A stretch of 64,000 nucleotides of DNA. Source: Larus michahellis (taxonomy: Eukaryota). Of this stretch, positions 36,001-39,000 are shown piece after piece. Location of the stretch: assembly GCF_964199755.1 (NCBI RefSeq), contig NC_133912.1:254570-318569 (forward strand), given 5' to 3'. Position numbers: made by a program. How positions within the stretch are numbered: position 1 is the first letter of the stretch; each line of letters begins with the position of its first letter.

Positions 36001-39000
36001 GGAGGGGCTAGGCAAGGGGGTGTGGCCTGGGCATTCAGGGCGTGGTCATTGTGGGTGGGGCTATGGTCTCAGTGCTGAGGGCATGGTCAGGCACTATGGG
36101 TGGGGCTAGGTGCAGGCGTGGTCAGACAGCGTGTGTGGGGCATCTAGGGAGAGGGCGTGGTTGGCAGCCAGGGGGTGGGGCTTAACAGCCAGGCAGAGCC
36201 AGGTGACCAATGGCCTTGGGGTGGGCGTGGCCCCAGGATGGGGCGAGGTTATGGCAGTGGGCAGGGCCAGGGTGGGTGAGGCCTGTGGTGGGCAGGGCCT
36301 GAGGGTGGATCCTTCTTCCCCCTCCGCAGGCACTTCGAGGTGCCCAAGGACCCCAAGGAGCTGGGGCGCCTCTTCAGCGTCCCCGACTTCGTGGGCGACG
36401 CCTGCAAGTCCCTAGCCTCCCGCGTGCGTGGCGCCGTGGCGGCCGTCACCTTCGATGACTTCCACAAGGTCTCCTCGGCTGCGCCCCCAGCGCGGCCCCT
36501 CCCTTGCGCACAACCACCCCCACTTCCACCCGCCTCACCCACGTCCTTGTGCCCCCCCTCCATGTCACCCTGGGTCTCCCTCGGTCCCTGATGTCCCCCT
36601 GATGTCCCCAAGTGTCTTGCGTATCCCTCATCTCCCAGCAACTCAAGGAGGCTGATCTGCTCAGCCTTGTTTGGCTTTGAGGAAGCCCCACATGTTCCCC
36701 ATATCCCCCCATGTCCCCAGTATCTCAACCTCCTCAATGTCCCCAGGGGACCCCGATGTCCCCAAGTGTCTCATGTATCTCTGCTGTCCCCAGAACTCCA
36801 ATCGTCTCATCTGCTCGGCCGTGTTTGGCTTTGATGAGGGCGGGCGGCTGCGGGAGCAGCTCCGCTTTGCCCCCAATGGGCTGGTGGTGACGAGTGTCGA
36901 CATCCAGAGTGTGGAGCCTGTGGACCAGCGCACCCGCGACGCCCTGCAGCGCAGCGTCCAGCTGGCCATCGAGATCGCCACCAACTCCCAGGAGGCCGCA
37001 GCCAGGTCCCCATGTCCCCCCCATGTCACCTCATGTCCCCCCCGGGTCACCTCACGTCCCACCAGGTTCCTCCTGTGTCCCCCTGTGTCCCCCCAGCCCA
37101 CCTTCCAGCTGGAGATCATCAGCACTAACTCCCAGGAGGCCACTGCTAGGTCTCGGTGTCCTTTGCATCCCCAAGTGTGTCCCCCCATGTCCCTTAAGCC
37201 CCCCCATCTCCTCCAATGCTCTCCCCATATTGCCGCATCGCCTGTGTCCCTCCATGTGATCCCCCATGTCCCTAAATGTCCCCTACACCCATGTCCCCCA
37301 TACCAACCATGTCCCCCTACACCCCTACATCCCCATGTCCTCCACCCAACCAGCTTCCCCGCCATGTCCCCCCATGTCCCCCGCGCCCCCTGACCCCTCG
37401 CTTCCTGTCCCCAGGCACGAGGCGGAGCGGCTGGCGCAGGAGGCCCGGGGACGCCTGGAGCGGCAGCGGCTGCTGGACCAGGCGGAGGCCGAGCGGGCGC
37501 GCAGGGAGCTGCTGGAGCTGGAGGCCCTCAGGTCGGCCATCTTCCCGGCGGGCGAGGGGGTGCGGGGCGGGGGTTCTGCGGCGGGCTGGGGGTGTGACTG
37601 CCCTTCCCTCTCTCCTCCCTTCTCCCCAGCGCGGCTGTGGAGAGCGCGGGGGCGGCGCGGGCGGAGGCGCAGGCCCGGGCGGAGGCCGCCCGCATTGAGG
37701 GGGAAGCGGCCGTCCAGCAGGCCAAGCTGAAGGCGGAGGCCATCGCCATCGAGACGGTGCGGGGGAAGGGGGGGGCGGCCGGGACCTGCCCGGGGAGGTG
37801 CCCTGCGGGGCCCGGGGGCAGAGCTGTGGGGTGGGGGCGTGTCCCTGCCGTGTCCCACCCAATGGAGGTGGAGCCGGGGGCGTGTCCCGACGGTTCCCCG
37901 CCCCCAGGAGGCGGAGCTGTCACGGCAGGAGCGGCTGCAGGCGCAGGAGGTGCGGGCGCAGCGGGCGCGGGGGGAGGCGGAGGCGGCGCGGGCCCAGGCG
38001 CTGGCGGACGTGGAGGCCTCGCGGGTGCGGGAGGTGGCAGCCGCCCTGGGGCCCGAAACCATCCGAGACATCGCCCGGGCCGGGCCCGAGCTCCAGGTGA
38101 GGGGTGGGGGGCATGGGGAGGGGGGGTGTGCCTGCAGGGTGGGAGGGGCTTTGCTGGGCGTGGCACTTACCGGGGGGCGGAGTCTCCGTGGGCGGGGTTT
38201 GGGGGCGTGGCCTGACGGGAGGTGTGTGTGTTGTTCCCCCCCACCAAGGTGAAGCTGCTGCAGGGCCTGGGGCTGCAGTCCACCCTCATCACCGACGGCA
38301 ACGCCCCCCTCAACCTCTTCACCACCGCCCGGGGGCTGCTGGGGCTGGCCCCGCCCCCGGAGAGCTCCGCCCCCCAGGGCCCCGCCCTCTGAGCACCCAG
38401 GTCGCCGGGCTGCCACCCCCCACCCACCCCCGGACCGTCCGGAGCAGCCCAATAAAGGGAGCAGTTGGCAGCAGTGGTGTCCGTGTGATGTCACGGTGAT
38501 GTCAGGGCCGGGGGCGGTGACATCGGAGGTGGCGGGGGGGCGGGGCTTGGAAGTGCGGCTGCAGAAGCAGGGACTCCCCGCTGCTGGCGGGGGGGGCATG
38601 GTTTCTGTGACGTCAGCCATGAGGGCAAGCGAGGGCAGCCCTGTGGTAGCCCCCAGGGTGTCGGGAGCTGTGAGGTCGCCAGCGGTCGGGTACTGGGATG
38701 AGCAATGTCACAGCGACGTCACAGCGATGCAGCCCAGAGGATCAGGGGACAGTGGGTCGGGGGGGGGGAGGGGGGCGTGGCACAGTGATCCCCCCACGAT
38801 ATGGGGGGGTCACAGGGCACAGCGACCCCCACATCGTGACCTGGTAATACCCGATCTTCGCCCACCCGCGACGGAGCTGGGGGCTGCCACGGGGGCGTCA
38901 GGCCGGATCCGAGAGCCCCTGGGAGCCTCTGGCCCCTCTCCCACGTGGTTTCCCTCGCTCCGCTCTCCCCAGTCGCCGCCCCATGGACCCGCCACCACCC

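Follow-up and report, generated by a model that had tools for sequence, protein, structure and literature searches.

A boundary-spanning tandem copy of an exon end in an MVP intron of the gull Larus michahellis: probably an old, neutral relic

The question at this locus

Does a short intronic sequence with the look of an exon have to do anything? The question is raised by the gene for major vault protein (MVP) in a window of 64,000 nucleotides from Larus michahellis (contig NC_133912.1 of RefSeq assembly GCF_964199755.1, positions 254,570 to 318,569 of the forward strand; all coordinates below are positions in this window). In the intron between the MVP exons at 36794-37005 and 37415-37531 (intron 12) lie 53 nt that resemble the end of the preceding exon and have AG and GT at their edges. 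An initial annotation, made from the sequence, had read them as a duplicated pseudo-exon with two usable splice signals, either a poison exon that regulates the gene through nonsense-mediated mRNA decay (NMD) or one that is simply tolerated. We find that the 53 nt belong to a longer copy which is, with high probability, a neutral relic, in slow decay, that a single small tandem duplication across the exon/intron boundary left behind. The readings that would give the copy some function in splicing are, even taken together, unlikely.

A copied exon end in intron 12

At 37097-37149, 53 nt (CCCACCTTCCAGCTGGAGATCATCAGCACTAACTCCCAGGAGGCCACTGCTAG) stand between cccccag (37090-37096) and gtctcgg (37150-37156), with coordinates and sequence exactly as the initial annotation had them. 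Its claim that they duplicate the 3' end of the preceding exon also stands, although it took the copy to be these 53 nt of exon tail: the copied stretch is longer, at least 37089-37161, and includes the head of the intron. This stretch is a diverged direct duplicate of 36942-37017 (the last 64 nt of exon 36794-37005 and the first 12 nt of the intron), with 76-80% identity and one 3-nt deletion. The deletion divides the similarity into two matches in a direct-repeat search: 36942-36970 against 37089-37117 (29 nt, 76%, offset 147) and 36974-37017 against 37118-37161 (44 nt, 80%, offset 144). Using blastn, 36942-37042 matches 37089-37186 over 101 nt (E = 1e-8). The Smith-Waterman score is 34, compared with a mean of 10.2 (standard deviation 1.4, maximum 20) in 2000 dinucleotide-preserving shuffles of the intron (z = 16.6), and the best score reached by the other intron segments tested against the exon tail is 12. 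Beyond 37161 the copy becomes fainter; it can be followed to ~37186 by BLAST and to ~37230 by gapped local alignment.

In the ancestral frame, the 53 nt encode (PTF)...(R), the counterpart of the real exon tail. The homology crosses the exon end into the intron head, with GTCTCGGTGTCC in the copy and GTCCCCATGTCC in the original. The AG at 37095-96 is a copy of an in-exon CTGCAG and has no separate origin, and the pyrimidine tract 5' of it is the intron head of the first unit. Of the exon's 212 nt just 64 are copied, and neither length nor phase is preserved. The parts of the duplication are as follows.

36942-37088, + strand: duplication unit 1, the last 64 nt of the exon and the intron head
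37089-37096, + strand: 5' end of the copy, CCCCCCAG, which matches in-exon CCCTGCAG and supplies the 'acceptor' AG
37097-37149, + strand: the 53-nt pseudo-exon, a copy of the exon tail with a 3-nt in-frame deletion
37150-37186, + strand: copy of the intron head (rest of unit 2), carrying the donor TAG/GTCTCG

The spacing between the units is 147/144 nt in gulls and 125 nt in the plover Charadrius, a difference explained by a gull-specific 21-nt unit together with the 3-nt deletion. The extra 21-nt unit lies within ~37015-37057, in an array of 21-nt period at 37002-37067, and is absent from plover, penguin and duck. In the plover the two units align across 104 nt (64 nt of exon tail and ~40 nt of intron head) which, with the 125-nt spacing, indicates a tandem duplication of ~125 bp across the exon/intron boundary. 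As three copies in the gull gene lie 147-154 nt from their sources, a nucleosome-sized duplication unit was also considered; we rejected it, since the value of 147 results from the 21-nt insertion and the plover has 125.

Distribution among birds and age

We compared the MVP loci of ten other bird assemblies, two of them from Chroicocephalus and with Grus and Apus left out. Conservation of the duplicate in other species, which the initial annotation had held to bear on its reading, turns out to be partial. Both Chroicocephalus assemblies, which are independent of each other, carry the copy unchanged (100%), and plover, penguin and duck each have an orthologous copy. That of Charadrius is 94% identical across the 53 nt and lacks the 3-nt deletion, giving 56 nt between the AG and the GT. 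That of Eudyptes (penguin) has a 14-nt deletion, which took the original donor and left CAG/GTCTCT, giving 42 nt. In Mergus (duck), where the cassette is again 56 nt long, identity is 75% overall, but 57% in the first half and 88% in the second. Elsewhere the copy is reduced or missing: Phaenicophaeus (cuckoo) has its first half only, it is scrambled in Turnix (buttonquail), and it is not detectable at the MVP loci of Lagopus (grouse), Struthio (ostrich) and Dromaius (emu).

The copies of gull, plover, penguin and duck have derived states in common (CACCT, GGAGATC, ATCAGC, GCCACTGC and GGTCTC) that occur in no real exon tail. They also cluster, with 93-94% mutual identity among gull, plover and penguin and 68-82% identity to real tails. 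These shared derived bases imply one duplication, no later than the neognath ancestor. The comparison thus points to a single ancient event, dated to that ancestor or earlier and followed by decay lineage by lineage. Gene conversion, which could have kept the copy exon-like, was rejected because the derived states are shared across species and the copies are not homogenised with the exon. The real exon of Turnix reads EATAR, as the copies do; this was examined as a sign of conversion and is a single CpG transition.

These observations suggest the following history. A unit of ~125 bp was duplicated in tandem, with one breakpoint in the MVP exon at CCCTGCAG, 64 nt before its end, and the other ~60 nt inside the following C/T-rich intron. 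Unit 1 remained attached to the exon and stayed functional; unit 2 came to lie in the intron, bringing with it a copy of the donor (AG/GT) and the exon's own CAG, now placed behind a pyrimidine-rich stretch. It is this combination of a copied donor and an in-exon CAG after a pyrimidine-rich stretch that makes unit 2 look like an exon. Presence in duck, plover, gull and penguin puts the event no later than the ancestor of Neognathae. Since then the copy has drifted through loss of CpG, a 3-nt deletion and a neighbouring 21-nt insertion in the gull lineage and a 14-nt deletion in the penguin, and cuckoo, buttonquail and grouse have lost it in part or altogether. The spliceosome still joins 37005 to 37415, presumably ignoring the copy or using it at noise level.

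Decay of the copied coding sequence

Between the copy and the real exon tail, differences fall 3/5/5 by codon position; nine codons are changed, 2 of them synonymously and 7 non-synonymously. None of the five CpGs in the original tail survives in the copy. The even spread over codon positions, the seven non-synonymous of nine changed codons and the loss of CpG together indicate that coding constraint is absent.

We also aligned all MVP introns pairwise and ranked intronic windows of 53 nt by conservation. Mean ungapped intron identity is 82% between gull and plover, 84% between gull and penguin and 67% between gull and duck. Against this background the 94% of the pseudo-exon in the gull-plover comparison lies in the top 5% of intronic windows and the 75% in the duck comparison in the top 17%, while with its deletion counted the penguin copy (70%) lies in the bottom 11%.

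Splice signals and transcript evidence

Splice sites were scored with a weight matrix of approximate consensus frequencies and not with MaxEntScan, so that only the relative rankings of the scores below can be trusted. The copied donor, TAG/GTCTCG, scores -1.16 and is thus weakened further with respect to its source, and the copied acceptor scores 7.7, within the range of real MVP acceptors. Of the two signals that the initial annotation called usable, the acceptor is therefore ordinary but the donor very weak, and the description would fit many intronic positions: 297 GTs and 21 AGs in the introns score at least as well as those of the copy and form 115 AG..GT pairs spaced 30-300 nt apart. 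By a wide margin the two weakest authentic donors of the gene, which are consecutive and of an unusual GTC type, are the source donor itself (37005/37006, CAG/GTCCCC, -0.29) and that of the preceding exon (36468/36469, AAG/GTCTCC, 0.06). The GTCC of the 37005 donor is kept in 10/10 bird loci. The local introns are made of CATGTCCCC repeats, which are similar to this donor.

If the 53 nt were spliced in after 37005 and joined to 37415, the reading frame would shift and a stop would arise in exon 37630-37756, with two junctions still downstream and more than ~50 nt before the last exon junction, a position where NMD is expected. Both the frameshift and the junction coordinates (37005 and 37415) had been put forward in the initial annotation, and both agree with the exons we reconstructed at 36794-37005 and 37415-37531. 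In the penguin, the 42-nt cassette is in frame and the premature-stop outcome does not hold.

The cassette junctions were found in no bird MVP protein inspected. With one exception (P0154, below), these proteins, among them isoforms of Larus, Rissa, Chroicocephalus, Opisthocomus, Apus, Lagopus and Numida, run directly from the end of exon 12 into exon 13. When the peptide of the cassette junction was searched against the database, it returned only normal MVP fragments and genomic read-through open reading frames (ORFs) of other species. There was no Rfam match in 24000-41000, no excess RNA structure (folding z-score +0.84), and no paper tying MVP to a poison exon in the literature searched. 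The copy is, we infer, not included in transcripts to any meaningful extent.

A different event is seen in one annotated isoform of a grouse. In MVP isoform X2 of Tympanuchus pallidicinctus (P0154), the sequence QEAAAR runs on into the intron (SPVPCVTLGCPP...) for ~190 residues, which amounts to retention of intron 12. The corresponding gull intron (37006-37414) is open in the exon frame up to 37393, within an ORF at 36671-37393. The real alternative event at this site may be that this intron, with its weak donor, is retained.

Relic or functional element

Several observations weigh against a neutral relic. The authentic donor at 37005, at -0.29, is barely better than that of the copy, and the strength of the motif does not by itself explain why the copy would be ignored. 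AG and GT flanks persist in all four lineages with a recognisable copy, and in the penguin the deletion itself formed a new CAG/GT. With CpG sites removed, the pseudo-exon falls in the lowest 5.5% (plover), 8% (penguin) and 32% (duck) of divergence, and the mutual identity of the gull, plover and penguin copies is about equal to that of the coding exon tail. Such low divergence in the alignments is a weak hint of constraint, but it could equally reflect the cleaner alignment of unique sequence amid CATGTCCCC-type repeats. It is distinctly unlikely that the copy, kept by the lineages of waterbirds, shorebirds and ducks over >70 million years, serves as a low-level NMD cassette or as a decoy donor buffering the weak-GTCCCC intron, in a lineage-restricted regulatory role.

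A functional poison exon, in which regulated inclusion of the 53 nt would lead through frameshift, premature stop and NMD to a tuned level of vault protein, could claim these same flanks, intact in gull, plover and duck and re-created in penguin. It could also claim a length of 3n+2 in three of the four lineages, the acceptor typical of real ones, the predicted stop with its two further junctions downstream, and the high rank of the plover comparison. Such an exon would, however, have to be gone in grouse, scrambled in Turnix and half gone in cuckoo; the in-frame penguin cassette would not be poison at all, and the first half is just 57% conserved in comparison with the duck. To this are added the very weak donor among plentiful decoys of equal or better motif strength, the lack of junction peptides in annotated isoforms and database proteins, and the literature search that gave no paper linking MVP to a poison exon. 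We therefore consider this reading very unlikely. Of the two possibilities in the initial annotation, the poison exon is unsupported, and toleration is much better supported by the losses, the variable length, the neutral changes, a conservation that places the copy no higher than the top 5-30% of ordinary intronic windows, the very weak donor and the lack of its junctions in isoforms and proteins. If regulated inclusion were nevertheless seen in RNA-seq, the element would be a poison exon born of a partial exon duplication. The copy might instead act without being spliced, as a decoy donor or enhancer that recruits U1 or serine/arginine-rich (SR) proteins and so aids the GTCCCC donor. The donors of exon 12 and of the exon before it are indeed the weakest in the gene, the Tympanuchus isoform that retains intron 12 comes from a group without the copy, and the gull, plover and duck copies share one core (AACTCCCAGGAGGCC) with the real exon without any difference. 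But grouse, ostrich, emu and Turnix splice the intron without this element, 14 nt of the core are missing from the penguin, and conservation is unexceptional, which makes such a role if anything still less probable than a poison exon.

There is only a slight chance that the copied donor serves as an alternative 5' splice site. Its use at 37149 would add 144 nt, or 48 residues (RSPCPPHV...), to gull MVP, in frame and without stops in the window and in Chroicocephalus, and no stop interrupts this frame anywhere in the intron up to 37393. The extension is in frame only in gulls, however (125 nt in plover, 109 in penguin and 124 in duck), and contains stop codons in the duck; in sequence so poor in T and A, a frame would stay open by chance with an estimated probability of ~0.4. 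The insert appears in no gull isoform (Larus, Rissa, Chroicocephalus), and its proline-rich sequence would presumably break the conserved stretch that starts the C-terminal helical region of MVP. Finally, the surrounding intron consists of short CATGTCCCC-like repeats, which might produce a chance resemblance in low-complexity, C-rich sequence or an artefact of assembly. This we regard as refuted by the z-score against dinucleotide shuffles, the identical copy in both Chroicocephalus assemblies and the orthologues in those of plover, penguin and duck, and its probability is close to nil.

Comparison with known duplications

As a neutral relic, the copy has a known mutational background. Work by Gao & Lynch (PNAS, 2009) reportedly deals with intragenic tandem duplications across an exon-intron boundary, after which the intron contains part of the exon a second time together with a redundant splice site. 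The MVP copy resembles such duplications in having its breakpoints in an exon and the adjacent intron, in the landing of a donor and an exon fragment in the intron, and in the original frame being kept with the original sites still in use. It differs in being very old and heavily decayed, and in being one of at least five in a repeat-rich gene. Tandemly duplicated exons are reportedly also used as mutually exclusive alternatives (the subject of a 2002 study by Letunic, Copley & Bork). The intronic sequence of MVP is likewise homologous to the neighbouring exon and in direct orientation, but it covers only part of that exon (64/212 nt), keeps neither its length nor its phase, and has decayed in coding capacity. 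Among known poison cassette exons, which show strong conservation and proven inclusion in transcripts, are the ultraconserved ones of the SR-protein genes. Like these, the MVP copy is a short, AG/GT-flanked intronic cassette whose inclusion would give a premature stop before later junctions; unlike them, it is gone or changed in many lineages and has a very weak donor, and isoform and protein proxies for its inclusion are negative.

The same type of mutation, with a duplicated AG/GT that resembles usable splice sites, underlies the Rogers model, in which an intron arises when exon sequence that contains AGGT is duplicated in tandem (Hellsten et al., 2011, PMC3265369; reviewed in PMC3443670). 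In MVP, however, splicing runs from 37005 to 37415 and not between the duplicated AG/GT pair. All ten bird loci have the intron after QEAAA(R), whether or not they carry the copy, and the acceptor that is actually used (37414/37415) lies outside the duplication; hence there was no intron gain at this site.

The type of mutation is thus already known, and the MVP element is an ordinary, neatly datable case of a known class. As it stands the element is of little importance in itself, but it is a clean example of a boundary-spanning tandem duplication that made an instant exon-like decoy and has since persisted and decayed for tens of millions of years in a GC-rich avian intron. It illustrates where the raw material for new exons or poison exons comes from. 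It also calls for caution in gene prediction on genes of bird microchromosomes, where such copies may mislead splice-site and exon callers.

The MVP gene and its other exon-fragment copies

MVP occupies a GC-rich block at 24-40 kb of the window, on the + strand. Using tblastn and splice-junction scoring, we rebuilt a gene of 16 coding exons and a protein of 854 amino acids, ~100% identical to the major vault protein of Chroicocephalus ridibundus (P0121). At three residues it is unlike that protein and the same as XP_074417398.1 of Larus michahellis (P0244). The coding exons, all from this reconstruction, are the following.

26666-26784, + strand: coding exon 1
27385-27580, + strand: coding exon 2
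28276-28399, + strand: coding exon 3
28475-28606, + strand: coding exon 4
29528-29622, + strand: coding exon 5
30300-30536, + strand: coding exon 6
31271-31396, + strand: coding exon 7
31855-32013, + strand: coding exon 8
32993-33243, + strand: coding exon 9
35381-35578, + strand: coding exon 10
36330-36468, + strand: coding exon 11
36794-37005, + strand: coding exon 12, the source exon, with the weak donor CAG/GTCCCC; ends before a split (R)
37415-37531, + strand: coding exon 13, beginning (R)HEAERLAQ and joined directly to 37005
37630-37756, + strand: coding exon 14
37908-38096, + strand: coding exon 15
38249-38392, + strand: coding exon 16

The pseudo-exon is not the sole duplicated exon end in this gene, as the initial annotation had also recognised: a blastn search of the MVP introns finds at least five exon-fragment copies, the pseudo-exon among them. 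The others are listed here.

26890-26953, + strand: copy of the exon-1 tail with its donor (26743-26806), 77%, offset 147
33447-33509, + strand: copy of the head of exon 35381-35578, 86%
33532-33637, + strand: second copy of the head of exon 35381-35578, 72%
36597-36683, + strand: copy of the head of exon 36794-37005 (from 36751-36837), 77%, offset 154

The last of these consists of 43 nt of acceptor region and the first 44 nt of the exon. The phylogenetic distribution of the four is much like that of the pseudo-exon. The copies at 26890-26953, 33447-33509 and 33532-33637 are common to plover and penguin, and in part to duck. The number of copies of the head of exon 36794-37005 differs between birds: plover has two, intron 11 of the emu five or six (L010, 26017-26513), and gull, penguin, duck and cuckoo a single one. 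The exon head is therefore the last unit of a tandem array in the intron, and this array is dynamic.

Direct repeats are frequent throughout the gene region, with 51 off-diagonal matches: 41 intron-intron (35 of them less than 400 bp apart), 6 exon-intron and 4 exon-exon. The pseudo-exon is one visible product of this high local rate of tandem duplication in C-rich introns. A boundary-crossing duplication is tolerated, since its redundant unit ends up in the intron.

A similar arrangement occurs once outside the birds compared here. In P0268, a eukaryotic read-through ORF on a JGI metagenome contig of 1067 nt, the MVP exon tail is present twice in tandem. The two tails are separated by 36 residues that include a (TH)n run, and the 5' boundary of the repeat is almost that of the bird copy. 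Among 387 proteins scanned, this is the sole case of a repeated exon-tail motif, and from its sequence it looks like an independent duplication of the same MVP exon/intron junction.

At the other end of the gene, a 92-nt tandem repeat (2 copies, 83%) with many CTGCCCCACAG units lies at 26300-26487, and upstream to ~26000, just 5' of the start codon at 26666. RefSeq MVP models of gulls, hoatzin, ostrich and others have ORFs 50-70 residues longer, which run into this upstream repeat (units of the LLPH.EV.CP type). The true start codon of MVP is therefore uncertain.

Elsewhere in the window

Upstream of MVP and on the opposite strand lies a full-length and apparently young endogenous retrovirus (11985-21767, - strand). 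Its long terminal repeats, at 11985-13143 and 20609-21767, are 1159 nt each and 99.8% identical. It has three long ORFs.

19376-20677, - strand: gag-sized ORF, 433 amino acids, no Pfam match
15903-19016, - strand: pol ORF, 1037 amino acids, with protease, reverse transcriptase, RNase H and integrase (Pfam)
13185-15719, - strand: env-sized ORF, 844 amino acids, no Pfam match

Fragments of CR1-type long interspersed nuclear elements, with ORFs for the C-terminal part of reverse transcriptase that show its typical motif, occur at 1326-1841, 6493-7209, 8346-9047, 39254-39736, 41990-42814 and other places. They lie on both sides of MVP, in the lower-GC parts of the window, and a typical avian CR1 3' end is found near 39560-39760.

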